Assembly (NCBI GenBank): GCA_016217835.1
Contig: JACRFQ010000043.1
Location: forward strand, 1-63,235
Source: Candidatus Levyibacteriota bacterium
Lineage (GTDB): Bacteria > Patescibacteriota > Microgenomatia > Levybacterales > UBA12049
Reading direction: 5' to 3'
DNA: 63,235 nucleotides
The position numbers and the translations under genes were made by a program. Positions 1-12,664 of the stretch are shown one piece after another (the first letter of the stretch is position 1; every line of letters starts with the position of its first letter). The notes beneath the pieces were generated by a model. That model saw only the letters and a program-made list of their open reading frames with translations, was not told the DNA's origin and ran no database searches.

Positions 1-1
1 T

Positions 2-634
2 TATGAATTCAGCAAAAGGTTAATGGACGTAGCTTTTTCTTTAATTCTTATCGTTATCTTTTCCCCTGTAATTTTAATTGTTTCAATACTTATAAAATTA
101 GATTCAAAAGGCCCTGTTTTAGCAGATACTCCCCAAAGAATTGGAAGAGGCGGAAAAACTTTTAAAATGTATAAATTCAGAAGTATGATTCAAAATGCGC
201 ACGAAATTTTAAGAAATAATCCAAAATACGCAAATCTTTTTAACGAATACAAAAAAGGAAGTTACAAATTAAAAGATGATCCAAGAATTACAAAAGTTGG
301 GCATTTTTTAAGAAAGCACTCTTTAGATGAAGTGCCGCAGCTTTTTAATATTTTAAAAGGAGATATGAGTTTAGTTGGTCCAAGAGCTTATTATCCCGAT
401 GAATTAAGAGATCAGCAAAAAAAATATCCCAAAACGCAAACTGCCGTAAAAATTGTGCTTTCAATTAAGCCCGGGCTGACGGGTTATTGGCAGGTTTCTG
501 GCAGAAGCGAAATAAATTTTGATAAAAGAATTGAAATGGATGCGATGTACGTTAAAAAAAGATCAATTATTTATGATTTGTGGATTATTTTAAAAACCCC
601 CTGGGCAATGATTTCCGGCAAAGGCGCCCTCTAA
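2..634 (+). CDS. bacterial sugar transferase (polyprenyl-phosphate glycosyl-1-phosphate transferase, WbaP/PglC-like catalytic domain); 5' end possibly cut by the window edge
   Basis: Translation ..KRLMDVAFSLILIVIFSPVILIVSILIKLDSKGPVL..RIGRGGKTFKMYKFRSM..DEVPQLFNILKGDMSLVGPRA..PGLTGYWQVSGRS carries the hallmark motifs of the Bac_transf family. The frame is open from nt 2 to the ATG at 23. Confidence 0.85.
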   Translation, partial: YEFSKRLMDVAFSLILIVIFSPVILIVSILIKLDSKGPVLADTPQRIGRGGKTFKMYKFRSMIQNAHEILRNNPKYANLFNEYKKGSYKLKDDPRITKVGHFLRKHSLDEVPQLFNILKGDMSLVGPRAYYPDELRDQQKKYPKTQTAVKIVLSIKPGLTGYWQVSGRSEINFDKRIEMDAMYVKKRSIIYDLWIILKTPWAMISGKGAL

Positions 635-650
635 ATCTCTTCAAGAGCAG

Positions 651-680
651 TTGACACGTTTGTTATTTTCAAGCTATGAT
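651..680 (+). promoter_or_regulatory. sigma70-like promoter, TTGACA (651-656) - 18 nt - TATGAT (675-680)
   Basis: Read directly from the sequence. The ORF-track ATG at 676 lies inside the -10 box. The in-frame ATG at 688 lies 8 nt after the box. Confidence 0.45.
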
Positions 681-2661
681 ATATGTTATGGACGGTTTTA
701 AAAAAATAGATTTTAAACTTGAAGAACAAGAAAAAACCCAAACTCCGTCTACAGATTTAAAACCTTTAGAAAAAAACCCAAAAATGAAATTTAATTTTAA
801 AAAATTTATCAAAAGCAAAAAGGGCATTAGCGTTCTTTTAATTGTTTTATTTTTATTTTTGTTTGGTATTTTTGGTGTTTATCTTCCGGCAGTTAAGGTT
901 TATAAATCTGCAAAATTAACTTATCAGGATGCACAGGCTGCTTCTTGGGCCATAAAAACCCAAAATGTCTCACTAGCTTTAGATCAGCTCAAAAAAACTA
1001 AGACAGATTTGGCAATTACTCAAGCGAATTTAAATTCAATGTGGTATTTAAAATATGTTCCTGTTGCAAGTTTTTACTATAGTGATGCTTATCATTTAAC
1101 AAAAGCCGGTGAGCACGGATTAAACGCAGCGACAATATTGGTTGAATCGATTGCACCCTATGCTGATGTTTTAGGGCTTAAAGGTCAGGGGAGTTTTGCC
1201 GGTGGAACAGCCGAGCAAAGAATAGGGACGGCAGTTAAGGCAATTGGAAAAATAACCCCAAGAATTGATGATATCTCAAGTGAGCTTGCGATTGTCAGAA
1301 CAGAAATAGACAAGGTTAATCCGGATCATTATCCTGCCTTTATTTTTGGTAAAAAAGCGAAAAATACCATAGATAATTTAAGAACTTTAACTGATCAAAG
1401 TGTTGATCTTATTACAAACGCAAAACCCTTGATTAAAACTCTGCCGCAAGTTTTGGGTGAGCCCGATGAGAAAAAATATCTAATAATTTTTCAAAATGAT
1501 AAAGAGTTAAGACCAACCGGCGGATTTATGACTGCATATTCGGTATTTAGGCTTGATAGCGGTATTGTTCACGTTGATTCTTCAAGTGATATTTATAGCC
1601 TGGATGCAACTATTTCTAATAAGCCTGCCGCTCCAAGGCCAATCCTTGCTTATTTGCCAAAAGTTCCGCTTTTAAACCTAAGGGATGTTAATCTTTCTCC
1701 TGATTTTAAGGTTTCAATGGATGATTTTTCAAAAATGTACAAAACATCAGGCGGATATAAAAAAATTGACGGCATAATTGCTGTTGATACACACGCATTA
1801 GTAGCTGCGATGGAAGTTTTAGGAGATATAAACGTAAATGGAACAACGTTTACGACAAAAAATGATTCAAGATGCAACTGCCCCCAGGTTATCTATCAAC
1901 TTGAAGTAATCGCCGATCAACCGGCGCAGATTGTAAAAGAAAATAGAAAAGGCATAATCGGAGATTTGATGTATGCCATTATGAATAAAGCATTTTCTTC
2001 TTCGCCTAAAAAATATTGGGGACCATTATTCCAAACCATGCTTTTGCAGCTGTCTGAAAAACATGTGCTTACCTATATGTATGACAAAGATGCTCAGGCC
2101 GGTTTTGAGGGGTTAAATGCAGCCGGAAGAATACTTCCCTTTGAAGGTGACTACTTTCACTTAAATGAGGCTAATTTTGGCGGCGCAAAATCAAACATGT
2201 TTGTTTCACAATCAGTTACGCAAGATTATAGCGTTAGTTCAGATGGAGTAATTACAAAAACAGTTACAGTTGATTATAAAAACCCTTATCCTCCGTCCGA
2301 TTGTAATTTGGAAAGAGGAAATCTTTGTTTAAATGCGGTTTTAAGAAATTGGTTTAGGATATATGTTCCTAAAGGAAGCCAGTTGGTTTCGTCTAAGGGC
2401 TCGGAAGTAAAAATGACTTCTTACGAAGAATTAGGAAAGACAGTATTTGAGGGATTTTTGACAGTCAGGCCGCAGGGGGCGGCAAAATTAACAGTTTCCT
2501 ATAAGCTTCCGTTTAAATTGTCGAATAATTTATTATTGCCCCTTCTTGTTCAAAAGCAAGGCGGAACAAATGACGACAACTATAAAATAACAGTTAACGG
2601 AAGAACGGTAGAGGATTTTGATTTGGCAAGCGATAAAACCTTAAATCTTAAGCTAAAATAA
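676..2661 (+). CDS. DUF4012 domain-containing envelope protein (N-terminal TM anchor, large extracytoplasmic domain); true start may be ATG 688
   Basis: There is a TM helix ISVLLIVLFLFLFGIFGVYL. The motif YLIIFQNDKELRPTGGFMTAYSVF is typical of DUF4012 proteins. Confidence 0.75.
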   Translation: MIYVMDGFKKIDFKLEEQEKTQTPSTDLKPLEKNPKMKFNFKKFIKSKKGISVLLIVLFLFLFGIFGVYLPAVKVYKSAKLTYQDAQAASWAIKTQNVSLALDQLKKTKTDLAITQANLNSMWYLKYVPVASFYYSDAYHLTKAGEHGLNAATILVESIAPYADVLGLKGQGSFAGGTAEQRIGTAVKAIGKITPRIDDISSELAIVRTEIDKVNPDHYPAFIFGKKAKNTIDNLRTLTDQSVDLITNAKPLIKTLPQVLGEPDEKKYLIIFQNDKELRPTGGFMTAYSVFRLDSGIVHVDSSSDIYSLDATISNKPAAPRPILAYLPKVPLLNLRDVNLSPDFKVSMDDFSKMYKTSGGYKKIDGIIAVDTHALVAAMEVLGDINVNGTTFTTKNDSRCNCPQVIYQLEVIADQPAQIVKENRKGIIGDLMYAIMNKAFSSSPKKYWGPLFQTMLLQLSEKHVLTYMYDKDAQAGFEGLNAAGRILPFEGDYFHLNEANFGGAKSNMFVSQSVTQDYSVSSDGVITKTVTVDYKNPYPPSDCNLERGNLCLNAVLRNWFRIYVPKGSQLVSSKGSEVKMTSYEELGKTVFEGFLTVRPQGAAKLTVSYKLPFKLSNNLLLPLLVQKQGGTNDDNYKITVNGRTVEDFDLASDKTLNLKLK

Positions 2662-2664
2662 CAT

Positions 2665-3210
2665 ATGCGGTCTTTTAAAACAGAGGGAATTGTTATAAAA
2701 AGAAGAAATTATAATGAGGCCGACAGGATAATTACGGTTTTTTCAAAAAGAAACGGAAAAATAAATATAAAAGCCTCGGGGGTCAGAAAAATTACCAGCA
2801 GACGCAGCCCTCATATTGAGCTTCTTAATTATTCTATTTTTAGCCTGCATCAAGGTAAAAATATATCTACTTTAACAGAAGTTGATTCATTAAATAATTT
2901 CTCTGATTTAAAAAAAGACTTAAAAAAAATCGCAGCTGCCTATCATATTTGTGAGCTTATTGATGGTTTGTGCGCTGAAAATCAGGAAAACGAAGCTATT
3001 TTTAATCTTTTAACTAAAACTCTTAATAAAATATCAAACAATTTTAATTTAAAAGAAACTGTTTACGAATTTGAAATTGAGCTCTTAAGTCTTTTGGGTT
3101 TTCATACGTTTTCAATTTCAAAAATAAAAATTAATACCCAAGGGTTAATTGAAGGGATTTTAGAAAGAAAGCTTAAAACCCGCCAAATTTTGCTTCAGTT
3201 TACTTCCTAG
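2665..3210 (+). CDS. recO: DNA repair protein RecO
   Basis: The N-terminal OB-fold signature MRSFKTEGIVIKRRNYNEADRIITVFSKRNGKINIKASGVRKITSRR and the overall size fit RecO. Confidence 0.85.
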   Translation: MRSFKTEGIVIKRRNYNEADRIITVFSKRNGKINIKASGVRKITSRRSPHIELLNYSIFSLHQGKNISTLTEVDSLNNFSDLKKDLKKIAAAYHICELIDGLCAENQENEAIFNLLTKTLNKISNNFNLKETVYEFEIELLSLLGFHTFSISKIKINTQGLIEGILERKLKTRQILLQFTS

Positions 3211-3211
3211 T

Positions 3212-3231
3212 CCTGCCTGCCGGCAGGCAGG
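3212..3231 (+). terminator. GC-rich 20-bp perfect palindrome CCTGCCTGCCGGCAGGCAGG followed by TTT; terminator-like hairpin after recO
   Basis: Read directly. It starts 1 nt after the recO stop. The T-tract is short, so the call is tentative. Confidence 0.45.
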
Positions 3232-3251
3232 TTTAAAACTCCATTCTTTTC

Positions 3252-3260
3252 TGATATCAT
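3252..3260 (+). promoter_or_regulatory. extended -10 promoter TGaTATCAT, 6 nt upstream of the glyQS ATG (leaderless-type)
   Basis: TG at 3252-3253 and hexamer TATCAT at 3255-3260, with the ATG at 3267. Confidence 0.45.
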
Positions 3261-3266
3261 TAGGCT

Positions 3267-4550
3267 ATGGATAATCTAATGGAAAAAATTGTTGCGCTTT
3301 GCAAAAGACGTGGATTTATATACCCGGGATCTGAAATTTACGGCGGATTAACAGGCACCTGGGATTATGGACCCTTAGGTGCAATATTTAAGAAGAATCT
3401 CAAAGATTTATGGTGGAAAGAAATGGTGCAACTTCGAAGCGATGTTGTCGGAGTTGACGCGGCAATCATGATGAATCCAATGGTCTGGGAAAAATCAGGA
3501 CATTTAAAAGCTTTTACAGACCCTTTAGTTGAGTGTAAAGTTTGTCATCAAAGATTTAGAGCAGATAAAGAAAATGAAATTAAAGTTCATGAAAAAACTC
3601 ATAAAGAAAAAACCGAATGGACAACTCCTCAAAAGTTTAATTTATTGGTAAAAGCATACCTTGGAATTATCGAAGGGCAGCAGGACGAAATTTATTTAAG
3701 AGGAGAGATAACACAGGGCGCGTTTGTAAATTTTGAAAATGTAGCTTCTTCCACACGCGTTAAAATTCCTTTTGGAATTGCCCAAATCGGAAAAGCTTTT
3801 AGAAATGAAATAACGCCTGGGAATTTTACCTTCCGTTCCAGGGAATTTGAGCAAATGGAACTTGAATTCTTTATAAAACCCGATGAAGCAGAGGGAGATA
3901 AATGGTTTAACTATTGGAAAAATCAAAGAATGAATTGGTATACGTCTTTGGGAATAAATAGGGAAAACTTAAGATTTAGAAAACATGAAGAAAAAGAAAG
4001 GGCTCATTACGCAAAATTTGCCGAAGATATTGAATATAACGCGCCGTTTGGTTGGAGCGAGTTTGAGGGAATTCATAATAGGGGAGATTTTGATCTATCA
4101 GCCCATAATTTATCTTTTATAGATGAAGAAGGAAAAAAGTTTACTCCTTGGGTAATTGAGACTTCCGGCGGAATAGACAGAAGTCTGTTGTTTTTTTTAA
4201 TCGATGCTTATACGGAAGATGGGGAAAGAAAAGTGCTTAAACTCCATCCCAAATTAGCGCCTTACAAAGTTGCTGTTTTTCCGCTTTTGGCAAATAAAGA
4301 AGAATTGGTTTCAGAGGCTCGAAAAATCTATGAAAGCCTAAAGCAGGATATGATGGTTGCCTGGGATGACAGAGGAAACATTGGTAAGCGTTATTTTGCC
4401 CAGGACGAAGCAGGAACGCCGTTTTGTATTACAGTTGATTTTCAAACCCTTGAGGATAAAACCGTAACAGTCAGAGACCGTGATACCGCGAAGCAGGAAA
4501 GAGTAAAAATAAACGAACTACCAGAATACATGGCTAAAAAGCTTTCTTAA
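3267..4550 (+). CDS. glyQS: glycine--tRNA ligase (dimeric class II GlyRS)
   Basis: The N-terminus KIVALCKRRGFIYPGSEIYGGLTGTWDYGPLG and the motifs FRNEITPGNFTFRSREFEQMELEFF and ETSGGIDR are characteristic of GlyQS. Confidence 0.95.
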   Translation: MDNLMEKIVALCKRRGFIYPGSEIYGGLTGTWDYGPLGAIFKKNLKDLWWKEMVQLRSDVVGVDAAIMMNPMVWEKSGHLKAFTDPLVECKVCHQRFRADKENEIKVHEKTHKEKTEWTTPQKFNLLVKAYLGIIEGQQDEIYLRGEITQGAFVNFENVASSTRVKIPFGIAQIGKAFRNEITPGNFTFRSREFEQMELEFFIKPDEAEGDKWFNYWKNQRMNWYTSLGINRENLRFRKHEEKERAHYAKFAEDIEYNAPFGWSEFEGIHNRGDFDLSAHNLSFIDEEGKKFTPWVIETSGGIDRSLLFFLIDAYTEDGERKVLKLHPKLAPYKVAVFPLLANKEELVSEARKIYESLKQDMMVAWDDRGNIGKRYFAQDEAGTPFCITVDFQTLEDKTVTVRDRDTAKQERVKINELPEYMAKKLS

Positions 4551-4551
4551 T

Positions 4552-4573
4552 TATCATATATTAATATATGATA
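4552..4573. promoter_or_regulatory. palindrome copy 1, TATCATATATTAATATATGATA (candidate operator), in the glyQS / regulator gap
   Basis: Perfect 22-bp palindrome. It overlaps a TATGAT -10-like box (4567-4572) that lies 8 nt before the ATG at 4580. Confidence 0.6.
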
Positions 4574-4579
4574 TGAAGT

Positions 4580-4984
4580 ATGACTCATGTTTCTAAAAAA
4601 CAGCTTAATAAAAAAGCAGAAAAGGAATTGTTACATAATTTTAATTTAGTCCTAGCAGATATTAAACAAGAAGATGAAATGGAATATTTTCTTAATTCTC
4701 TGCTTTCCTCAACCGAAAGACTAATGTTAGCAAAAAGATTGGCAATAGTAATTCTCCTTAAGGAAGGCGTTCCTCACATAAGCATAGCTTCTGCACTTAA
4801 TGTAACTGAAGCTACTGTTTCCAGAATGCAATTATTTTTAGAGGCAAGAGGGGGAGGATACGAAGTTTCACTTAAAAAGTTAGCGAAGAAGAAAATGCAT
4901 GCAGAATTTAAGAGTTTCCTTTTAAAGCTAGCACGGTATTCTATCAGAGCTGCGGGTGGATACGTTAAACCCGGAGTTCTGTAA
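4580..4984 (+). CDS. TrpR-like YerC/YecD family helix-turn-helix protein (putative transcriptional regulator)
   Basis: EDEMEYFLNSLLSSTERLMLAKRLAIVILLKEGVPHISIASALNVTEATVSRMQLFLEARGGGYEV parallels the YerC/YecD (Trp repressor-like) pattern. Confidence 0.75.
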   Translation: MTHVSKKQLNKKAEKELLHNFNLVLADIKQEDEMEYFLNSLLSSTERLMLAKRLAIVILLKEGVPHISIASALNVTEATVSRMQLFLEARGGGYEVSLKKLAKKKMHAEFKSFLLKLARYSIRAAGGYVKPGVL

Positions 4985-4986
4985 TT

Positions 4987-5016
4987 AAATTATCATATAT
5001 TAATATATGATAATTT
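4987..5016. promoter_or_regulatory. palindrome copy 2, 30-bp perfect palindrome AAATTATCATATATTAATATATGATAATTT (candidate operator)
   Basis: It begins 2 nt after the regulator stop codon. It abuts a TTGACT -35-like hexamer at 5015-5020 ahead of the 5086 gene. Confidence 0.6.
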
Positions 5017-5085
5017 GACTTTATAGATTATATTTATACAGACAAAAAAATCGGAGGTTTAAAAAAGATTAAGGCGTGTATTTAA

Positions 5086-5760
5086 ATGACCTGGCGATTT
5101 GATGCAGATCAAAAATGTATTACAATATTTCTAATGTTCAAAAAGAATAATTATAAATTAATTATCAATAAATGGTCTTTGGTGATTTTTATTTCTTTCG
5201 GTGTATTATTATTTTTTGTGGTTAGCCAAACTCAATTATTAAACACTCTTCTCCCTATAATTAATCATGAAATTATTATGAAAACATATTATGAAAAGGG
5301 TTTTGGTTGGAGTATTACATATCCTGCCAACATGAAAGTTGTTTCTAATTCTGTAGAAAATAGGGTCAGCGATCCAGACGCTATAGGCAACGCTGTAGAT
5401 TTTTGGGTTGATGGACCAACTCAACGAAGCGGGACGGAATTTCATGATGGGATTTTAATAACAATATTTATCGCAAACAAAGCTCCAGGTATGAGTCTTG
5501 AAGGATTTGCAATTCAGAAAAGCAGTAAATCCGGACTTAATAACAATTCATTATACCCAGTAAGTAAAATTGAAGTAAATGGAATAAATGGGTATCAATT
5601 CTTAATTTCAGAATCCGGAAAAACTCTAAGCATATTCTTGCCCTATAAAGACCGTGTAGATAAAGTTTTGGTTATGTATATAATTTCTGAAGGAAAAAAT
5701 AAGAGCGACTACGATGCTTTATTGAAGAAAATGCTGGATACGTTTAGCTTTGAGGAGTAG
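5086..5760 (+). CDS. hypothetical membrane-anchored extracytoplasmic protein (start may be the internal ATG at 5134)
   Basis: There is one N-terminal TM helix (WSLVIFISFGVLLFFVV) followed by a soluble domain of about 160 aa. I recognise no family. Confidence 0.6.
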   Translation: MTWRFDADQKCITIFLMFKKNNYKLIINKWSLVIFISFGVLLFFVVSQTQLLNTLLPIINHEIIMKTYYEKGFGWSITYPANMKVVSNSVENRVSDPDAIGNAVDFWVDGPTQRSGTEFHDGILITIFIANKAPGMSLEGFAIQKSSKSGLNNNSLYPVSKIEVNGINGYQFLISESGKTLSIFLPYKDRVDKVLVMYIISEGKNKSDYDALLKKMLDTFSFEE

Positions 5761-5776
5761 TAATGCTTTTTTATAG

Positions 5777-6316
5777 TTATAAAAATCTGATTGAGTTGAT
5801 GATTTCCTCAAATTCTTTCTCATACTGGGAGGGGTCTGGTTCTTTAGAGATTTGCAAAATCTTGTTTCCATTTTTCAAAAAATAGTGAACTAACTCTTCA
5901 TTACTTGGCGTTCTGGTAGTATATTTATAAAATGTTCCCCCTGATACTTGCTTTATGTCTTTAGAGATTATCTCATCTGGTCTATCTTCTTTGCCCTCTC
6001 CACAGGCAGGATATTTCAAATCATCCTCGAGGGATGAAAAACAATTAGAGAATTCGCTTATGTATATCTCGACCTGCTCGGCTGATGGTTTATCATTTCT
6101 ATTTTGATTTGTTTTATAATCTGTTAAAAGAATACTCTGGTATCTATCGTCTATATACCACTCTTTAGGATAGCTTAGGGATATTTTTAAATCTTTACTT
6201 ACGTGTTGCGTTGTACCTTTTTGCTGCCAATTAAGAAGGAGGATGACAAAAACAGCAATTATAATTGCAATTATTAAATAAATTAATTTTCTATGTTTAC
6301 TCTTTACTCTTATCAT
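5777..6316 (-). CDS. hypothetical membrane-anchored extracytoplasmic protein
   Basis: The N-terminal anchor is LIYLIIAIIIAVFVILLL. It overlaps the end of the upstream M23 gene by 20 nt, which suggests an operon. Its architecture resembles that of the 5086 product. Confidence 0.6.
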   Translation of the reverse strand: MIRVKSKHRKLIYLIIAIIIAVFVILLLNWQQKGTTQHVSKDLKISLSYPKEWYIDDRYQSILLTDYKTNQNRNDKPSAEQVEIYISEFSNCFSSLEDDLKYPACGEGKEDRPDEIISKDIKQVSGGTFYKYTTRTPSNEELVHYFLKNGNKILQISKEPDPSQYEKEFEEIINSIRFL

Positions 6317-8552
6317 GTGGTACTATTACCTCCGTTTGCGCGCTTGATTTATTTCCGGCAAAATCAATTGTGTCTATATTTATTATATACTTTCTTCCGT
6401 CAAAATCACTACTGTTTCTTCTGGCTTCAAGAAAAATAGTATCCCCGAATTCATTAACTTCGGGCATAGTCATACCGTACTCATCTATTATGTTAAAGGT
6501 TTTATTTGCAAGATGCAATTCTTGGATAAAACCGCTAATTTTTACGGGAACGAATTTACCATTAGGAGGCCAAAGAACCTGAGGATCTGGGAATACTGAT
6601 ACAATAGGCGGTGTTTTATCAATAGAAAAAGTTATTATTTTTCTATCTTCTTTGTTTTCAGCCTTATCATAAGACTCATATGTAATTGTATGCGTTCCTT
6701 CGCTGGAAAATATGATTGGGTCTTTATATTCAAACCAATCGCTGCCGTTAATTGTATAAAGCGTATACTGGAGGCCTATGCCTCCATCGTTATCATATCC
6801 TTGTAGTTCAGTGCTTACGTCTGATCGATACCAACCTTCTTGACCTTTATCTCCTGAGATAATAACATCCGTTACTGGAGCAATCAAATCCTTTAGCTCC
6901 CCCATTAATGCAAATTGCGAAAAGTGAGTAGTCTCCGTAGAAACCTTTTTATTCAGCGTATCAACAATACTTGGCAATCCCTCCCATTGTCCTGTCTCTT
7001 CATTAAACCAATAAATCTTTAAAGACTCTTCGTTGATATTTAGCAAATCTGCATCTGCATAGTCGTAGGTTATGGTTACTGGTTGTAGAAACTGGGTAAC
7101 TTTCTGTCCGAGACTATCAAAGGCATTAAGAAAAATAGAGGGCATAACGCTTTTTATTAACCCATTTGATTCAAAAGGACCAAAATCCGCGATAATTTTT
7201 ACTTCAGCGTTGAATGTGTTACTAGATATGCTAACTAGAATATCTCCAAGTGAGATTGACCCGCCGGCAGTTGGAATTTCTTCCTGTTTTGGCGGCACCC
7301 GGGCAATAAAGAGATTATAGCTAGGTGTTCCTTTTCTGCCGTTGCTTTCCCACTGTGTCCAGGGATCTGAGTTCTCTCCTTGCCATCCTAGCGGATCAGT
7401 AACACCCCATGGAATATCGTCATCAAACGTGTCGCTTTCATTCGAGTCTTTAAAAACGGAGAAATGGATATGCGGACCGCTGGTATTGCCAGTCATACCA
7501 ACTTCTCCAATTTTATCTCCTTTGTTAACAAAAATTCGTTCTTGAGTTGAGGATACAATGAGACCATTTGGTGATAAATGTTCATACCAGGATTGATATC
7601 CATTCTCATGGTCAATCTTAATAACGTTTCCTGCTCCTCCGCTTTCTGACTCTGGTTTAAAAGTGGCCCAGCCGGACGCGGCTGCAAGAACCGGTGTACC
7701 AAGAACTACACCGTTTTTCAAACCATAGTCATACCCATTGTGCGATCGATAAAAACCATTAATTTCATTTCCCTTGAAAACGAGAACTTTTTCTTCACAG
7801 CAAGGGACATTTTGTAAGGGATATTGATGATCAAACCATGAGACTGGATTGAGGACAACATTTTCAAAGCTCTTTCCTTTTCCTTCATAATCCCAAGGTA
7901 AGTCTAAAAACGGTTGTACAGAAGCCGGTGTAGGCGTGGGTGTCGGCGCAATAGGAGGCGTATAGTCAAATGCAATTTCAAAGTTGTCAATATTCGCGTA
8001 CCAACTTTGTGATCCCGAATAGTTAATTCTCCAGATAAAATTATTTGTTTTGACATTATTAAGCGATAGACACGAGGAGAGTACCCCATTAGAAATTGGC
8101 GTAGTCACAGTATAAGTAGATATGTTTATACCATTAAGAATCCACATAGTCCATAAATCGGAAAGTACTTGGCAGTTTGATGTATAGCTTGTTCCAGGGG
8201 ACACTCCCACGTAAAGGCCAATATTTGCTTTTCCTATTACCCGAATCTTGATATTGGTAATAGTTGAGCCGTCAGGAATACCAAAGTCTCCAAAATTCCT
8301 GAAATAAAGATTCCCATAGCCTGATCCTAGGGCTCTGTTACAGGTCAGTCCATCAGTTGCAGAACAGTTTGACATATCGGTATATACATTGTATGTGTTG
8401 CCGATTATTACATCTGTAGTTACGGTATTCGCGCTTCTAAAAACCGTGGTTTCCGCATAAGAGGTATTATGAAGTAAAATAAAAAGTACTCCTGAAACAA
8501 ATAAATAAAAAAGAATTCTTAAGAAAGCTTTTCTACCTTGGGCAGTAGGCAT
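6297..8552 (-). CDS. secreted multidomain M23 (LytM-type) metallopeptidase
   Basis: It has a signal or anchor sequence FLRILFYLFVSGVLFILL. The M23 motifs are HNGYDYG and GNTSGPHIHFSVF. A Pro/Thr linker PPIAPTPTPTPAS is present. The C-terminal Ig-like or OmpL47-type segment reads YTINGSDWFEYKDPIIFSSEGTHTITYESYDKAENKE. Confidence 0.85.
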   Translation of the reverse strand: MPTAQGRKAFLRILFYLFVSGVLFILLHNTSYAETTVFRSANTVTTDVIIGNTYNVYTDMSNCSATDGLTCNRALGSGYGNLYFRNFGDFGIPDGSTITNIKIRVIGKANIGLYVGVSPGTSYTSNCQVLSDLWTMWILNGINISTYTVTTPISNGVLSSCLSLNNVKTNNFIWRINYSGSQSWYANIDNFEIAFDYTPPIAPTPTPTPASVQPFLDLPWDYEGKGKSFENVVLNPVSWFDHQYPLQNVPCCEEKVLVFKGNEINGFYRSHNGYDYGLKNGVVLGTPVLAAASGWATFKPESESGGAGNVIKIDHENGYQSWYEHLSPNGLIVSSTQERIFVNKGDKIGEVGMTGNTSGPHIHFSVFKDSNESDTFDDDIPWGVTDPLGWQGENSDPWTQWESNGRKGTPSYNLFIARVPPKQEEIPTAGGSISLGDILVSISSNTFNAEVKIIADFGPFESNGLIKSVMPSIFLNAFDSLGQKVTQFLQPVTITYDYADADLLNINEESLKIYWFNEETGQWEGLPSIVDTLNKKVSTETTHFSQFALMGELKDLIAPVTDVIISGDKGQEGWYRSDVSTELQGYDNDGGIGLQYTLYTINGSDWFEYKDPIIFSSEGTHTITYESYDKAENKEDRKIITFSIDKTPPIVSVFPDPQVLWPPNGKFVPVKISGFIQELHLANKTFNIIDEYGMTMPEVNEFGDTIFLEARRNSSDFDGRKYIINIDTIDFAGNKSSAQTEVIVPHDKSKE

Positions 8553-8633
8553 ATATATTTAAACTAGTTTCCTTTTTTTGGAAATGCAATAAGAGTTATG
8601 GTATAAAACCCTATCAAAACAAATAAATTGTTT

Positions 8634-8663
8634 TAATTATCATATATTAATATATGATAATTA
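8634..8663. promoter_or_regulatory. palindrome copy 3, 30-bp perfect palindrome TAATTATCATATATTAATATATGATAATTA (candidate operator)
   Basis: It lies 82 nt upstream of the start of the minus-strand M23 gene (8552). A TTGATA-N17-TCTTAT promoter-like pair lies between it and the gene on the minus strand. Confidence 0.6.
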
Positions 8664-8799
8664 GGAGTAAGTAGTATCAATTATTTAAAATTTATTGTTA
8701 CTTAACTTAAGCTTCAAAATAAGAAAGGGCAAAAATTGATGAGCTTTCGGATTATCTTCAAGATAAACTCAAATAAGTTTGTATCATATCCCGAGAAGC

Positions 8800-9984
8800 T
8801 CAATCTTTAATTTTATACTGCTTGTAGAGAAGAAAGCCTGTGATAAGAGGAAAAATTGCGATTGCAATCATCCAATCTTTGGCCATCTGTTCTTTATTGT
8901 AAAGAGTAAAAAGAATTAAAAGGAAAATATAACTTATTACTCTTGCAAATCCCAATATCCCATCTCTCTCCAAAAGCATGTGATATTTTTTTTGCCAGGG
9001 GAGTTTATTTTCATCAATAGTATTAAGGATAGCAAGGGATAAAGGAATACTAAAAAACGGAGTAGCTAAGCCATTGATTAATCCAAAAAGAAAAATTCCA
9101 AGCCAATTCTGGAATACGGCAAAAATAACAATGCTTACTGCCGTTCCCAGAGTCCCCGCAATATAAAGCCAGCTGTGTTTAGCTAATAATTTTGTTCCAA
9201 TAATAGATGTTAAGGCAATAAATAAAAGCATGCCTGTTCTAGTACCTCCTATTAAAGATTCATTTTTAAGAATAAGAAATAGGAGAATTGCAAATATTGT
9301 ATTAAAAGCGGCGTCATAAAGTCCTCCTATAAAATTTTGCCCTAAAACTATTTTCCATTTTCTGCTTCTTTGGTGATTTATTAAGTCCTTAAAAGAAAAT
9401 TCTATTCCTGTAAACTTAGGAAGTTTTTTGGTATTTATAGCAAGAAAAAGATTGATAAAAACCACTATAAGAAATAAAAAGTAATAACCCGCATAGGAAT
9501 TTTTTGTTAAATAATTAACCGCCATTACAATTACTCCGCCAAATATTGGTCCAAAAGCTGCGGCAATTTGAATAAGAGAAAGACTTTTCCCAAAATAAGC
9601 ATTTCTTGAATGTTTATTAGTTAAAATATATTGTAGTAAATTAAATCCGCTCCAGAAATTTCCGGCGGAAATTCCAAATATTAAACCTATCAGTGAAAGA
9701 TAGTTAACAGCATTTGCTTGAAGTAAAATTACAAGAAGGTAGGCTAATATGCTTATTATAAAACTACTCCCGATAAGTAAATGTGTAGAGTGCTTCTTGA
9801 GTAAAAATCCTGAAAAAAGATAAGTAAATAAAAGAGAAATAAATAAAAATAAATTAAAAATTACAGTTCCCGGAAATCCCGATAATCTAAAAACATAAAT
9901 TTGTAAGAATATTCCGGCTAAAGCTGAAGCAAAAGTAGAAATAACAAGAGTAAAAATTAAATGATTTTCTTCACGGCTTAACAT
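8800..9984 (-). CDS. MFS-type polytopic membrane transporter
   Basis: The 394-aa product has about 12 hydrophobic helices arranged 6+6 around a basic loop (HQRSRKWK). The substrate cannot be assigned. Confidence 0.65.
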   Translation of the reverse strand: MLSREENHLIFTLVISTFASALAGIFLQIYVFRLSGFPGTVIFNLFLFISLLFTYLFSGFLLKKHSTHLLIGSSFIISILAYLLVILLQANAVNYLSLIGLIFGISAGNFWSGFNLLQYILTNKHSRNAYFGKSLSLIQIAAAFGPIFGGVIVMAVNYLTKNSYAGYYFLFLIVVFINLFLAINTKKLPKFTGIEFSFKDLINHQRSRKWKIVLGQNFIGGLYDAAFNTIFAILLFLILKNESLIGGTRTGMLLFIALTSIIGTKLLAKHSWLYIAGTLGTAVSIVIFAVFQNWLGIFLFGLINGLATPFFSIPLSLAILNTIDENKLPWQKKYHMLLERDGILGFARVISYIFLLILFTLYNKEQMAKDWMIAIAIFPLITGFLLYKQYKIKD

Positions 9985-9991
9985 TAGTTAT

Positions 9992-9997
9992 ATTATA
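9992..9997 (-). promoter_or_regulatory. -10 box TATAAT (minus strand), 7 nt upstream of the MFS start codon
   Basis: The plus strand reads ATTATA at 9992-9997. The start codon complement is at 9982-9984. Confidence 0.4.
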
Positions 9998-10123
9998 TCC
10001 ATTTTATATTTTTATATAAAGTTTTATTTAATTATAAAATAAGCAGGATTAACCATTCCTTTAGGGTCGGACAGGCGTTTATTCCATAGAGCTGCTTCTC
10101 CGGAGCCGACTAGCTATGGTAGA

Positions 10124-10588
10124 ATGAAATTAATAATGTCAGGATTAAAACTAAGGATTATATCTTTACTGGTAAGTTACATTTCCTACTCTTGTTTAAC
10201 TGTTTTCTTTAGTTCTTTAATATTTTTGTTATTTTGGTATTTAAATACGGGTATTTTAATTCAGCATTTAATTGAGCTAAATAATTTAGATTTTAATGGC
10301 CTTGTTAGAGACTTATTGTTTTGGTCTACGATAGTTATGCTTTTTTCCGAAATTATAAAAAAGAAAATAAAAATAAAAATAGACAGTAAAATATTAATAT
10401 TATTATCCGTAGTTTTATTTATTGTTTATTCAATATTATTTACTATTCCGTTTTTGAGAACAGATGATTTAGATATTCAGGCAACCATTTTTGGCTTTTG
10501 GGCAATCTCTTTAATGTTTTTAAGTATTTATATTGGTATAAATTGGGCATTGAAATTAATCAGTAATAATTTGAAAAATAAGCGATAA
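10124..10588 (+). CDS. hypothetical small polytopic membrane protein (start possibly ATG 10136)
   Basis: There are four hydrophobic segments and no recognisable family. A TGgTAGAAT box at 10117-10125 overlaps the first ATG. Confidence 0.55.
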   Translation: MKLIMSGLKLRIISLLVSYISYSCLTVFFSSLIFLLFWYLNTGILIQHLIELNNLDFNGLVRDLLFWSTIVMLFSEIIKKKIKIKIDSKILILLSVVLFIVYSILFTIPFLRTDDLDIQATIFGFWAISLMFLSIYIGINWALKLISNNLKNKR

Positions 10589-10621
10589 TGTTGTCTATCC
10601 CACGGAGCATAAATACAACTA

Positions 10622-10650
10622 TTGACACCAAGAATTGTTTTGGATATGCT
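10622..10650 (+). promoter_or_regulatory. sigma70-like promoter TTGACA - 17 nt - TATGCT
   Basis: TTGACA at 10622-10627 and TATGCT at 10645-10650, with the ATG at 10662. Confidence 0.5.
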
Positions 10651-10661
10651 AATTTAGTTAG

Positions 10662-11147
10662 ATGAAAGAGCTTTTTAAAAATAAAAAATTGGTTTTAGCA
10701 GTGGGAATTGTAGTTTTACTCGTTATATTTTTAGGATTTTTACTTTTAAGCAATAAATCTTTAACCACTCAAAATACTCAAGATACAACTGCGTTGCCAA
10801 CTCAAATTCCGGTGCCTACAATCACAGCTGATTCGCTTGGTCTTACGCTTAAGCAAGATGCAGCGGGTAAAAATGCAATTATAGAAATTAGTAACCCGCA
10901 AGGAATTTCAGATATAGAAGCTACACTTTCTTATTCTGCAACAGTTAATGGAGAAGATGTAGATAGGGGAGCCTTGGTAAAAATTGATCCTACTAAAAAG
11001 CCCGTTACAAAAACAGTTCCATTTGGAACGTGTTCGGATGTTTGTCATTATGATACAGGTGTAAAAAACGTAAAAATAATTTTAAAAATTACAAAAACAG
11101 ACGGCAAAGTCTATCAAGCAGAGCAAGTACTTTCTTCCCTCGAGTAA
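10662..11147 (+). CDS. hypothetical membrane-anchored secreted protein
   Basis: The N-terminal TM helix is LVLAVGIVVLLVIFLGFLLL. A Thr/Gln/Pro linker and a beta-rich domain of about 100 aa follow. Confidence 0.6.
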   Translation: MKELFKNKKLVLAVGIVVLLVIFLGFLLLSNKSLTTQNTQDTTALPTQIPVPTITADSLGLTLKQDAAGKNAIIEISNPQGISDIEATLSYSATVNGEDVDRGALVKIDPTKKPVTKTVPFGTCSDVCHYDTGVKNVKIILKITKTDGKVYQAEQVLSSLE

Positions 11148-11168
11148 CCTTTTTTAAAAATATTTTAC

Positions 11169-11196
11169 AAAATCACTAGATATAGTGATTTTTTTT
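11169..11196 (+). terminator. Rho-independent terminator
   Basis: AAAATCACTA-GATA-TAGTGATTTT forms a 10-bp stem with a 4-nt loop and runs into a T-tract, 22 nt after the stop of the 10662 gene. Confidence 0.7.
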
Positions 11197-11227
11197 GTTT
11201 TTAACACTACAAAATGCTATTTACCTC

Positions 11228-11256
11228 TTGACAGCTTATAAAAACTGGCGCAAAAT
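11228..11256 (+). promoter_or_regulatory. dcw (Pmra-like) promoter TTGACA - 17 nt - CAAAAT
   Basis: TTGACA at 11228-11233 and CAAAAT at 11251-11256, immediately upstream of the MraZ boxes. Confidence 0.5.
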
Positions 11257-11264
11257 GATAGAAA

Positions 11265-11290
11265 GTGGGACAGATTGGGAAATAGTGGGA
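11265..11290 (+). promoter_or_regulatory. MraZ operator: three direct repeats GTGGGA / TTGGGA / GTGGGA at exact 10-nt spacing
   Basis: The repeats lie at 11265-11270, 11275-11280 and 11285-11290, about 36 nt upstream of mraZ. This matches the known MraZ binding-site architecture of GTGGG-type repeats with 10-nt periodicity. Confidence 0.75.
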
Positions 11291-11325
11291 CACTTTAGGC
11301 AGGCCCCATATCGCGGGTTAAAGAT

Positions 11326-11775
11326 ATGTTAATAGGACAACATGATGGAAAAATTGATGACAAAGGCCGGACAGCGTTACCTAAAAAATTCAGAGAAGTT
11401 TTGGGTGATAAGTTAATTATTACGTTTGGTTATGAAAACTCGCTTATTATCGTATCGCAAGAAAATTGGAAAGCCTTACTCGAGGGTACAGAAGGAAGAC
11501 CTTTTATTGAATCCGATACAAGAGAAACGCAAAGGTTTTTACTCGGGGGAGCAACGAGTGTCGAGCTTGACAATAAAGGAAGGTTTGTATTACCAGCTTA
11601 TCTTAGAGAATTTGCAAAAATTAAAGATAATGTCGTATTCCTAGGCTTATCAAGATATGTTGAAATTTGGGATAAAGACAGATGGAGTCAATATCAAAAG
11701 AACCTTGAAAAAAATATAGATACTATTTCCCAAAGACTTGTAGAAAAAGAGAAAAGGAAAAAAAGCGATGAATAA
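11326..11775 (+). CDS. mraZ: transcriptional regulator MraZ
   Basis: Two SpoVT/AbrB-like halves carry the DxxGR motifs (IDDKGRTALPKKF and LDNKGRFVLPAYL). It is the first gene of the dcw cluster. Confidence 0.95.
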   Translation: MLIGQHDGKIDDKGRTALPKKFREVLGDKLIITFGYENSLIIVSQENWKALLEGTEGRPFIESDTRETQRFLLGGATSVELDNKGRFVLPAYLREFAKIKDNVVFLGLSRYVEIWDKDRWSQYQKNLEKNIDTISQRLVEKEKRKKSDE

Positions 11776-12664
11776 TTTTCATGCGCCGGTTCTTTTAAAA
11801 GAAGTAACCGAGTTTTTAAAAATAAAAAAGCAAGAGAAATATATCGATGCAACGCTTGGAGGCGGAGGACACGCGCAAGCTATTTTGAATCTTGGAGGAA
11901 TAGTTTTAGGAATAGACGTTGATCAAGACGCGCTAGATTATGTCAGAAAGAATCAGGAATCAAGAATTAAGAATAAAGAATTGACTTTAGCAAAAGGGAA
12001 TTTTAGAGACATTGAAGAAATTGCACATTTAAATAGTTTTGAAAAGGTTTCGGGGATTTTATTTGATTTAGGAATTTCATCTCATCAGATAGATACGCCC
12101 GAAAGAGGTTTTAGTTTTTTAAAAGAGGGACCGCTTGATATGCGGATGGATAAGGATTTAGGTGTAACTGCCGAAACTCTTGTAAATGTTTTAACGAAAG
12201 GAGAACTTTATGATTTATTTAATAAACTTGGTCAGGAGCATCGTGCTTTTGCCATTTCTGGAAATATTGTCAGGGCCCGTAGAGTAAAAGCGGTTCAAAC
12301 GACTAGTGAGCTTGCAAGGATTATTGAGCAAGCATATGGAATAAGGGGTGATGCGTCTGATTTTACTAAAAACGTAGTTAATAAAAGGGTATTTCAGGCT
12401 CTAAGAATGGCGGTTAATACAGAGCTTGAAAATATCGAGCAAGCTTTGCCAAAGGCAATTTATCTTTTGAAAGGAAAGGCAAGGATAGTAGTTATAAGTT
12501 TTCATTCTTTAGAGGATGGGATAGTAAAAAGAACTTTTAAAGATTTTGAGAAAAAAAATATGGGAAAAATAATTACCGAAAAACCGGTTAGCGTGACTAA
12601 AGAAGAGTTAAAAAAAAATTCAAGGGCGGCAAGCGCAAAATTAAGAGTGTTTGAAAAAAATTAA
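11768..12664 (+). CDS. rsmH: 16S rRNA (cytosine1402-N4)-methyltransferase RsmH
   Basis: The motifs HAPVLLKEV, IDATLGGGGHA, DLGISSHQID and SFHSLEDGIVK are present. Confidence 0.95.
   Translation: MNNFHAPVLLKEVTEFLKIKKQEKYIDATLGGGGHAQAILNLGGIVLGIDVDQDALDYVRKNQESRIKNKELTLAKGNFRDIEEIAHLNSFEKVSGILFDLGISSHQIDTPERGFSFLKEGPLDMRMDKDLGVTAETLVNVLTKGELYDLFNKLGQEHRAFAISGNIVRARRVKAVQTTSELARIIEQAYGIRGDASDFTKNVVNKRVFQALRMAVNTELENIEQALPKAIYLLKGKARIVVISFHSLEDGIVKRTFKDFEKKNMGKIITEKPVSVTKEELKKNSRAASAKLRVFEKN

Follow-up and report, generated by a model that had tools for sequence, protein, structure and literature searches.

HisR (YerC), the TrpR-family histidine repressor of Firmicutes, has a described regulon, and TrpR-family relatives use 20-bp palindromes and autoregulate (PMC9413887). 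HisR operators are palindromes of about 20 bp with a lineage-specific consensus (cacTTTAnnnnnnTAAAgtg for HisR itself); roughly half of the genomes have a site ahead of the repressor's own gene, which implies autoregulation, and operators of the TrpR type, TGTAcTnGTnnACnAgTACA, lie ahead of trp/aro genes (PMC9413887). A first-pass annotation of the DNA studied here had taken YerC/YecD proteins to be essentially without a characterised regulon, a statement that HisR contradicts. The DNA analysed is one continuous stretch of 63,235 nucleotides (hereafter, the window) from a Candidatus Levybacteria bacterium belonging to the candidate phyla radiation (CPR). To our knowledge, next to nothing has been established on how CPR bacteria control transcription, and amino-acid biosynthesis is generally absent from their genomes. 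A literature search found no paper treating the CPR TrpR-like family. We consider it likely, judging from sequence comparison, that three identical palindromes in the window are the cognate operators of an adjacent 134-aa regulator, which would repress its own gene and, through the third copy, modulate an M23 peptidase operon (Table 1).

The regulator scores 47.2 bits (cut-off 27) with the Pfam family Trp_repressor PF01371, its residues 19–101 aligning to profile positions 4–87 of 88. It falls below the cut-offs of the TrpR equivalog TIGR01321 (26.5 vs 67.25 bits) and of the YerC/YecD (HisR) family TIGR02531 (23.6 vs 42.2 bits), so that its initial assignment to YerC/YecD does not hold by NCBIfam thresholds. 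A profile search of the PDB retrieved 3frw (E = 2.5e-6), 3g1c and 3kor. The AF2 model (pLDDT 82.9) contains seven helices, and the best 24 Foldseek hits against the PDB are all TrpR-like proteins or TrpR, with target-normalised TM scores of 0.55–0.83. The predicted fold is thus all-helical and TrpR-like, with an extra C-terminal helix. The subfamily is CPR-specific and comprises 868 clusters at 50% identity (E<=1e-10); no paralogue of the regulator was found within the window.

Table 1. Features of the regulator locus and its surroundings (window coordinates)
Feature	Position	Strand	Remarks
glyQS (glycine--tRNA ligase)	3267..4550	+	NCBIfam NF003211, 577 bits
Copy 1 (candidate upstream operator)	4552..4573	.	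Perfect palindrome of 22 bp, within the 29 nt that separate glyQS from the regulator gene
134-aa TrpR-family helix-turn-helix regulator	4580..4984	+	Pfam PF01371 match
Copy 2 (candidate downstream operator)	4987..5016	.	Perfect 30-bp palindrome, begins 2 nt past the regulator stop
224-aa membrane protein (gene 5086)	5086..5760	+	Copy 2 on one side, convergent M23 operon on the other
179-aa membrane-anchored protein	5777..6316	-	20-nt overlap with the end of the M23 gene
751-aa secreted M23 metallopeptidase, OmpL47-type beta-barrel domain	6297..8552	-	Pfam PF01551, NCBIfam hits
TTATTGCATTT motif upstream of M23	8582..8592	-	Conserved among M23 orthologues
Copy 3 (solo)	8634..8663	.	Perfect 30-bp palindrome, flanked by the MFS gene (3' end) and the M23 operon (5' end)

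A whole-window search located the 22-mer TATCATATATTAATATATGATA exactly at 4552–4573, 4991–5012 and 8638–8659. Neither strand of the 63-kb window holds a further match with up to three mismatches, and no match arose in 100 dinucleotide-preserving shuffles, in agreement with the first-pass count of three copies. Copies 2 and 3 can be read off the sequence as the 30-bp perfect palindromes described before, and the perfect symmetry of copy 1 stops at 22 bp, TTAAT on its left side having no mirror on the right. The surrounding gene boundaries had likewise been placed correctly, with the glyQS stop at 4550, the regulator ATG at 4580 and stop codon at 4982–4984, and the M23 ATG at 8552 on the minus strand. 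Searches of the window for half-sites or for the outer arms alone yielded no convincing extra sites. Besides glyQS and the M23 peptidase gene, the neighbours of the sites include an MFS transporter gene and the mraZ cluster. Local alignment of the copy 3 flanks with those of copies 1 and 2 and with the regulator gene scored no better than shuffles, and the idea that copy 3 arose by duplication of a promoter or of part of a gene was rejected.

Copy 1 contains a -10-like TATGAT at 4567–4572, followed by 7 nt and the regulator ATG. No recognisable -35 for copy 1 is present in the window, where TTTCTT occupies the expected place, and a sigma-70 consensus scan of 4400–8900 returned as many promoter-like sites as in shuffles. 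We compared 79 homologous loci drawn from a wide range of CPR lineages, among them Levy-, Gottesman-, Curtiss-, Azam-, Nomura- and Paceibacteria. Homologous loci do carry such a dyad: most of the 79 show a two-sided palindrome of lineage-specific sequence, found 0–40 nt from the ATG of the regulator gene and again 10–62 nt past its stop. Both copies are present in 45 of the approximately 72 regulator genes scored. Under strict criteria, 47/77 homologous genes have the upstream palindrome and 29/77 are bracketed on both sides, vs 0/631 control genes. The upstream palindromes enclose a -10-like box, end 0–20 nt before the ATG (centre to ATG, 12–21 nt), and at 18/71 loci follow a TTGAC located 20–24 nt 5' of their centre; the dyad thereby overlaps the putative core promoter of the regulator's own gene. 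Such equivalent sites across homologues agree with the autorepression geometry suggested earlier for copy 1.

By analogy with TrpR and HisR, a regulator dimer would bind the palindrome, the operator spanning 22 bp in the window and 26–30 bp with flanks. The upstream copy would span the -10 region together with the predicted start of transcription, from which the regulator mRNA would be leaderless or nearly so. Because it covers both elements, binding there would shut off the regulator gene in a negative autoregulation, and occupancy of copy 1 would also stop read-through from glyQS. The downstream copy would most likely serve as a second auto-operator, which either raises local occupancy by cooperative binding or looping or forms a roadblock that shields the small gene from transcription of its surroundings. 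The distance between the upstream and downstream centres ranges over 412–534 bp without compensation, its variance equalling the sum of the component variances, and shows no helical phasing of 10–11 bp. A constrained loop geometry thus finds no support in this spacing.

Sequence classes of the palindrome track the classes of the HTH recognition helix across 75 loci. The helix VTxATVSRMQLF pairs with TATCATATATTAATATATGATA, VTRITVxKMRYF with TGTATAATAAGTTAGTATATTATACA, and MSPATIxRMSLKY with CTATCATATATGATAG, and regulator paralogues within one genome have different sites. In addition, the two copies of a locus share asymmetric positions, as in ATACATT in L001 and L080 and AAGTTAGT in L002–L011, and many CPR sites start with TGTA and finish with TACA, as the trp operator does. 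Over these loci, site specificity follows the DNA-reading helix. This co-variation, together with the bracketing seen in regulator genes and in no control gene, argues strongly that the palindromes are cognate operators of the adjacent TrpR-like HTH protein, as the first-pass annotation had proposed, and that the protein autoregulates.

The position of copy 2 bears on two further readings. The hexamer TTGACT at 5015–5020, on its right edge, had led to its interpretation as the operator of gene 5086. However, a matching post-stop palindrome occurs in most homologous loci regardless of the orientation of the next gene, even where that gene is convergent, and TTGACT has no -10 partner; copy 2 is therefore not simply an operator of gene 5086. 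The downstream copies in homologues likewise show no -35 at promoter distance. As far as the comparison of layouts tells, copy 2 is part of the regulator unit, and control of gene 5086 by the palindrome is uncertain. The region upstream of this gene is conserved in L103, where one palindrome stands before it. The 224-aa protein has no family hits in Pfam or NCBIfam, and neither it nor the 179-aa protein has significant homologues near other sites. Since it is common for downstream and solo copies to sit a few nucleotides past stop codons, and the regions of copies 2 and 3 fold with -17.9 kcal/mol (z = -5.6) and -10.9 kcal/mol, respectively, the palindromes might instead be RNA hairpins, i.e., terminators or 3'-end stabilisers of the upstream gene that are close to the regulator by coincidence. 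We regard this as highly improbable: no U tract follows the hairpins, and the three terminator-like hits in 4400–8900 are all away from the palindromes. Pairing alone would suffice for a hairpin, yet upstream and downstream copies keep their sequence including asymmetric positions; moreover, that sequence co-varies with the HTH, and the upstream copy would be mostly untranscribed. An Rfam search of 1–12000 gave no hits.

Beyond its own gene, the regulator has a candidate target in the M23 peptidase gene. The neighbours of the 79 regulator loci include no his genes, and no trp/aro genes lie near the window regulator. When the sequences upstream of M23 were compared among the window, L083, L017 and L019, the motif TTATTGCATTT emerged; a similar motif, TTTATTGATTT, precedes M23 in L196. 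We propose an M23 promoter with the -35 TTGCAT in TTATTGCATTT and a weak -10 TAGTTT at 8566–8561, at 17-nt spacing. The 30-bp copy 3 is 81 nt from the M23 ATG, and its centre lies 96 nt upstream of this codon; at ~95 nt from the putative start it would be too far away for simple promoter occlusion. As a solo operator ahead of the M23 operon, it would probably let the regulator modulate this operon. The 179-aa gene probably belongs to the same operon because it overlaps the M23 gene, and a comparably sized gene comes after M23 in L017, L019, L196, L197, L199 and L200 (with a weak PsbP_2 hit in L196). In L017, L019, L083–85 and L197, M23 orthologues are divergent to the regulator gene and share with it a palindrome-bearing spacer, in pairs that span three palindrome classes. 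The M23 operon as a target thus gains independent, though incomplete, support from a divergent regulator neighbour in four other lineages, but not as a universal target: four orthologues located away from regulator genes, 55–67% identical to the window M23, have no palindrome of at least 20 bp in their loci. The recurrent tie to a large secreted peptidoglycan hydrolase, here beside a division/cell-wall cluster, is suggestive of a function in remodelling the envelope or in interaction with a host cell.

The 20-mer core of TATCATATATTAATATATGATA also occurs in solo 26-bp palindromes at other loci of related metagenomic contigs; the closed local regulon envisaged at first is therefore probably not the whole picture. 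This core recurs in at least 33 solo sites that lack an adjacent regulator gene; about a quarter of them fall within ORFs, and they keep no set distance to the following start codon. All 42 solo sites lack TTGAC at -20 to -24, whichever strand is read, so they are not supported as promoters with the geometry of the autoregulatory site. Given this lack of a promoter-distance -35 and the share within ORFs, they may serve a purpose other than that of classical operators. A chance origin is plausible for 16 solo sites in contigs with G+C <0.33 and was rejected for the remaining ones, 52/75 extending by at least 3 bp per arm. Solo sites lie beside diverse housekeeping genes, as would be expected of a REP-like dispersed repeat or of another protein's site (e.g., dif/Xer-like) without any tie to the TrpR-like protein; the palindrome can even be read as 11-6-11, in the fashion of a Xer site. 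To this reading we give very little credence. The three copies per 63 kb are all within 4.1 kb of the regulator gene, a second copy is almost never present at solo loci, and flanking palindromes accompany most of the 77 regulator genes and none of the 631 controls. Unlike a conserved host recombinase site, moreover, the sequence shifts with the recognition helix and differs among paralogues. An extra copy 212 nt upstream of an IS200/RAYT-like gene in L014 is the only case of a RAYT transposase link, and a general link of this kind was rejected; the Y1_Tnp gene beside M23 in L200 accompanies a different, G+C-rich palindrome.

A further explanation is raised by the locus L103, in which glyQS (75% identical) is followed by a single palindrome and then by a homologue of window 5017–5125. 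This is the window order minus the regulator gene and one palindrome, and L091 represents the occupied state. The palindrome–gene–palindrome unit might accordingly be primarily a cassette bounded by recombination, its flanking repeats allowing loss or gain, with solo sites, including copy 3, as scars or docking sites and any operator role secondary. The many solo 26-bp palindromes would fit, as would the several regulator paralogues that a genome may hold, each bracketed by a pair of its own. In L007, L015 and L022 the convergent neighbour encodes a Xer-type tyrosine recombinase, and bracketing extends to further units (in L073 a 98-aa ORF; in the window and L019 the M23 operon). We nevertheless consider such a cassette unlikely as the primary function. 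It encodes no recombinase, L103 is one contig ending 100 nt past the junction, and deletion between identical repeats of 22–30 bp is expected anyway without dedicated mobility. Furthermore, the recO–glyQS–regulator–mraZ cluster is syntenic in Levybacteria (the order recO–glyQS–regulator being kept in L001 and L080) although the regulators are only 66–68% identical to that of the window, and the co-variation of site and HTH indicates that the protein recognises the site. Cognate operators thus remain our preferred reading. One extension of it, which we offer as a tentative possibility, is a bracketing design, conserved in the ultra-compact CPR genomes, in which the regulator would bind identical high-affinity palindromes that end its own gene and some target units (the M23 operon and the 98-aa ORF named above), with solo sites in tiny intergenic gaps. 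Protein-dependent loops or roadblocks would then switch or insulate whole transcription units, in place of control by classical promoter operators, and the flanking repeats would turn the regulator gene into a deletable and possibly re-insertable cassette. If true, the bracketing family would hold a dozen or more natural, orthogonal protein–operator pairs.

In summary, this analysis provides a concrete and easily tested candidate regulator–operator pair for CPR bacteria, and the table of recognition helices against operator variants should be useful for the DNA recognition code of the TrpR fold and for orthogonal parts. Like HisR/YerC, the regulator is a small all-helical TrpR-family protein, with 3g1c, 3frw and 3kor as its best sequence/structure matches; HisR binding calls for an amino-acid corepressor, L-histidine. 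It differs in its extra C-terminal helix, in a longer operator (22–30 bp) that is unrelated to cacTTTAnnnnnnTAAAgtg and has no his genes nearby, in the second operator copy past the stop, and in that CPR genomes can hold several paralogues with different sites. E. coli TrpR autoregulates via an operator overlapping its own promoter; we know of no downstream operator for it. The two share the fold (1trr, 1tro and 1zt9 among the Foldseek hits), a palindromic operator and autoregulation, the latter putative here, whereas the outer arms are TGTA-N12-TACA in E. coli and TGTA-N18-TACA in CPR, the TGTAcTnGTnnACnAgTACA-type operator contrasts with TATCATATATTAATATATGATA of the window, and trp/aro genes are absent nearby. 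With REP/RAYT and dif/pdif systems the locus has in common a gene flanked by the palindrome that its product presumably recognises, solo copies elsewhere, and a palindrome-bounded occupied/empty polymorphism (L103). REP/RAYT systems combine a Y1/HUH gene with tens to hundreds of copies and Xer/dif sites are conserved across lineages; here, a 134-aa HTH protein without Y1 or tyrosine recombinase domain is accompanied by three copies in 63 kb, and the sites vary with this protein, by lineage and paralogue, instead of being dictated by a conserved recombinase. LacI (O1/O2), GalR (OE/OI) and lambda CI (OR/OL) are two-operator repressors acting by looping or roadblock, and they resemble the present layout in combining a promoter operator with an identical or similar auxiliary operator a few hundred bp downstream. 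In CPR, by contrast, the auxiliary site lies past the regulator's own stop, is conserved across a phylum-level group and comes without signs of phasing or tetramerisation. A conserved operator behind the stop codon is undescribed for TrpR/HisR and points to control by looping or roadblock.

The 22-mer TATCATATATTAATATATGATA occurs three times in the 63,235-bp window, and exact positions together with a sequence search bore out the three identical palindromes as the first-pass annotation had described them. No further copy was found in the window with up to three mismatches allowed, and 100 dinucleotide-preserving shuffles contained no match. Searching the window with one half-site or with the outer arms alone gave no additional credible site. 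A long A+T-rich imperfect palindrome at 10350-10441 (51-nt arms, 71% complementary), inside the gene of a 154-aa membrane protein, is probably compositional.

Positions of the three palindromes and the surrounding genes in the window
Feature	Position	Strand	Remark
Sugar transferase, DUF4012 protein, recO			first genes of the window, in that order, before glyQS
glyQS	3267-4550
Copy 1	4552-4573		perfect palindrome over 22 bp
134-aa regulator	4580-4984
Copy 2	4987-5016		perfect 30-bp palindrome; 22-mer at 4991-5012
224-aa membrane protein	5086-5760	+
179-aa membrane protein	5777-6316	-
751-aa M23 peptidase	6297-8552	-	20-nt overlap with the 179-aa gene
Copy 3	8634-8663		perfect 30-bp palindrome; 22-mer at 8638-8659
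MFS transporter	8800-9984	-
Two small membrane proteins, then mraZ, rsmH, 99-aa gene, PBP			beyond the MFS transporter

The regulator scores above the threshold of Pfam Trp_repressor (47.2 bits against 27) and below the cut-offs of both NCBIfam TrpR (26.5 against 67.25) and NCBIfam YerC/YecD (23.6 against 42.2). The family profile matched the TrpR-like PDB entries 3frw, 3g1c and 3kor over residues 11-106. The AlphaFold model (pLDDT 82.9) comprises seven helices, of which helix 105-124 extends past the TrpR-like fold, and its best PDB matches are all TrpR-like proteins or E. coli TrpR. An identical protein is annotated in Candidatus Levybacteria. The homologues are nearly all from CPR/Patescibacteria, and an exhaustive profile search gave 868 clusters (50% identity, E<=1e-10).

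Comparison across homologous loci indicates that the repeats are best explained as operators of a CPR-specific, self-bracketed TrpR-family autoregulator. We fetched 79 genomic loci encoding regulator homologues at 29-66% identity, from Levy-, Gottesman-, Curtiss-, Shapiro-, Azam-, Nomura-, Giovannoni-, Zambryski-, Paceibacteria and others. In nearly all close and most distant relatives, a palindrome of 20-30 bp ends 0-20 nt before the regulator ATG (up to about 40 nt in a few loci), and the same palindrome is repeated 10-62 nt past the stop codon. Its sequence varies by lineage (TGTATCATATATTAATATATGATACA, TGTATAATAAGTTAGTATATTATACA, CATCATATATCGATATATGATG, CTATCATATATGATAG, ACTTCAATACTTTAAAGTATTGAAGT and ACCATGATTCGAATCATGGT are examples), and the two copies at one gene match each other. 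Scored on a 20-mer core with up to three mismatches, 45 of about 72 genes have both copies, 19 the upstream copy only and 7 the downstream copy only; some genes scored as misses have palindromes with an asymmetric centre, visible by eye. Under strict criteria, with 631 other genes from the same loci as controls, a strong upstream palindrome precedes 47 of 77 regulator genes versus 31 controls, and the same core also lies just downstream in 29 of 77 versus none. When the loci are sorted by palindrome, the recognition-helix sequence shifts together with it, and paralogues of one genome or even one contig have differing sites (L003/L009, L020, L073). In L073 (1700-3310), two adjoining TrpR-like paralogues carry the related yet distinct palindromes ACTTCGATATATCGTAGT and ACTTCAATATATTGTAGT, with seven sites in 1.6 kb, among them two perfect 26-bp palindromes around a 98-aa ORF. 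Such co-variation is what a DNA-binding protein and the site it recognises should show, and an incidental repeat is ruled out by a palindrome that changes in step with the recognition helix.

In the relatives, the upstream palindrome contains a -10-like TATGAT or TAATAT, and in most loci its centre stands 12-21 nt before the first base of the ATG. Ahead of that centre, TTGAC starts at a distance of 20 nt in 10 cases and of 23-24 nt in 8. Given this spacing, transcription is predicted to begin at the ATG or no more than about 6 nt from it, yielding a leaderless or nearly leaderless mRNA. The upstream operator would thus span the -10 element and the predicted start, the textbook placement of an autorepressing site, shared with TrpR and with roughly half of HisR genes (PMC9413887). 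In the window and the loci most closely related to it, L001 and L080, the regulator gene follows glyQS by 29-46 nt with a poor -35 position, and bound regulator could act there chiefly against read-through from glyQS. Of 80 loci, 15 have a class IIa aminoacyl-tRNA synthetase gene directly before the TrpR-like gene (the window, L001, L024, L031, L032, L046, L052, L053, L058-L060, L065, L066, L071 and L074), and in five others it is the second gene upstream. The enzyme is GlyRS in Levybacteria, ThrRS in Paceibacteria/Nomurabacteria and either ProRS type elsewhere. Since TrpR and HisR sense amino acids, these neighbours may hint at the effector of the regulator.

The first-pass annotation had noted that copy 2 abuts a -35-like TTGACT in front of the gene starting at 5086. 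A reading of copy 2 as simply the operator of that gene is not supported: the TTGACT at 5015 lacks a -10 partner, and across the loci a palindrome follows the regulator stop codon regardless of the next gene. In 43 loci that gene points the same way as the regulator and in 31 it is convergent, and the downstream palindrome occurs in both arrangements. It also differs among Levybacteria sharing the window's operator, encoding 224 aa in the window, 304 aa in L001, 164 aa in L080 and a MerR protein in L083. No TTGAC was found at promoter distance at the downstream copies of homologous loci, and a promoter consensus scan of the window region performed no better than shuffles. Because it is kept with either neighbour orientation, lacks TTGAC at promoter distance and precedes varying genes, the downstream copy belongs to the regulator unit and is not simply the operator of the next gene. 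As RNA it could fold into a hairpin of -17.9 kcal/mol, and no U tract follows it; conservation at the sequence level, including shared asymmetric positions, argues for protein recognition over a hairpin. The distance between upstream and downstream palindromes averages 463 bp (sd 25), with neither compensation nor helical phasing. We favour, with low confidence, an auxiliary operator that would act by cooperativity, looping or roadblock. Past copy 2 and up to the annotated start of the 224-aa gene, the window (5040-5125) is about 80% identical to comparison locus L103 (4000-4222), in which the annotated ATG reads AAG; GGAGG stands at 5053-5057, 28 nt before that ATG. This gene's true start, or a regulatory element belonging to it, may be misplaced.

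Locus L103 matches the window with the regulator gene and one palindrome taken out: its glyQS, 75% identical to that of the window, is followed by a single palindrome and about 100 nt aligning with window 5017-5125, which lies downstream of copy 2. The occupied state (glyQS, palindrome, MPHVS...) is found in L091, from another sample. A palindrome-gene-palindrome unit can apparently collapse to a solo palindrome, as expected of recombination between identical repeats, although mis-assembly of L103 is possible; the same process might account for copy 3 and other solo sites. We rate lower the alternative that the unit is a mobile cassette, since no recombinase is encoded in it, it occupies a syntenic position across Levybacteria, and the site follows the HTH and not a conserved recombinase. 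In three loci the TrpR-like gene has a convergent gene for a Xer-type tyrosine recombinase on its downstream side: next to it in L007 and L015, where the downstream palindrome is absent, and as second gene in L022. In L014 (7022-7922), an IS200/RAYT-like transposase gene is preceded at 212 nt by an extra copy of that locus's palindrome. Compared with L080, a syntenic contig from Levybacteria with the order recO-glyQS-regulator-p164-mraZ-rsmH-x-PBP, the window contains an additional block of about 5.6 kb (window 5017-10661 against L080 10275-10497), which begins at copy 2, includes copy 3 and holds the 224-aa, 179-aa, M23, MFS and 154-aa genes.

The regulator has an M23 orthologue (43% identical) as its divergent neighbour in L017, L019, L083-L085 and L197, loci that span three palindrome classes; the called M23 start appears truncated in L197, and in L083 the gene lies on the opposite side of the regulator compared with the window. 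The spacer, which contains the regulator's upstream palindrome, measures 81 nt in L083-L085; in L017 it is about 90 nt long. The M23 upstream regions of the window (8582-8592, minus strand), L083, L017 and L019 share TTATTGCATTT, with TTTATTGATTT in L196, 35-45 nt upstream of the start codons of proteins only about 43-67% identical. A hexamer of pattern TA(G/A)nnT (TAGTTT, TAGGTT or TAAGCT) follows 17 nt after the TTGCAT of TTATTGCATTT, and in the window and L083 the ATG comes about 8 nt after it; motif and hexamer plausibly form a leaderless M23 promoter. In the divergent loci the palindrome ends 7-11 nt upstream of TTATTGCATTT (centre near -58), and in the window copy 3 ends 45 nt upstream (centre near -95). 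The flanks of copy 3 bear no relation to those of copies 1 and 2. No palindrome was found in the loci of four M23 orthologues not adjoining a regulator gene, which speaks against a link of general validity. In this genome the M23 operon is a likely candidate target, which the regulator might repress, activate or shield by a roadblock from transcription reading through from the MFS gene. Copies 2 and 3 bracket the 224-aa, 179-aa and M23 genes, and L019 has an additional site just past the 3' end of its M23 operon. Together with L073, these bracketed units suggest that bracketing may be a more general habit of this regulator system. In L200 (5017-5900), an M23 orthologue has divergently upstream of it a Y1_Tnp gene, which carries the G+C-rich palindrome TCTAGCCTTCCAAGGCC....

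Scanning public metagenome contigs for the 20-mer core yielded 110 stretches, or 91 non-redundant sites: 18 flank a TrpR-like gene, 33 lie at least 520 nt from a contig end without an adjacent one, 24 are too close to a contig end for classification, and 16, in contigs with G+C below 0.33, are probably chance matches. In contigs of CPR-like composition, 52 of 75 sites extend by at least 3 bp on each arm, and the extensions peak sharply at exactly 3; thus the natural unit is the 26-bp palindrome T(G/A)TATCATATATTAATATATGATA(C/T)A. Because the same core recurs at other loci, the regulator probably has more sites than the window's three. Solo sites occur singly, at a density far below that of REP elements, and mostly in very short intergenic gaps beside varied housekeeping genes (tsf/frr, ftcD, a secreted nuclease, hisS, recG, uvrA, murC/D). 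Roughly one in four falls within an ORF, as in L119, where the site is within recX, beside recA; L037 and L077 also have recA directly next to the regulator. A gene for a family-4 uracil-DNA glycosylase comes after a palindrome of another class in two unrelated contexts (L074 6416-7141 and L114 11587-12272), one with a regulator and one at a solo site. None of the solo sites has a -35 element at the autoregulatory distance, and as a group they do not look like standard promoter operators.

The system is of interest for its conserved two-sided architecture, for a natural specificity series and for the scarcity of regulatory knowledge on CPR; literature searches combining TrpR-related terms with CPR names listed no paper treating this family there. 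The first-pass view that YerC/YecD proteins have essentially no characterised regulon is out of date, HisR(YerC) having been described (PMC9413887). TrpR/HisR(YerC) is the closest family, sharing the fold, palindromic operators with a lineage-specific consensus and frequent autoregulation (PMC9413887). In contrast to TrpR/HisR, the regulator fails both curated cut-offs and has a C-terminal helix, its operators are longer and unrelated, and its loci are without trp or his genes. Furthermore, its family has several paralogues with distinct sites and a conserved operator behind the stop codon.
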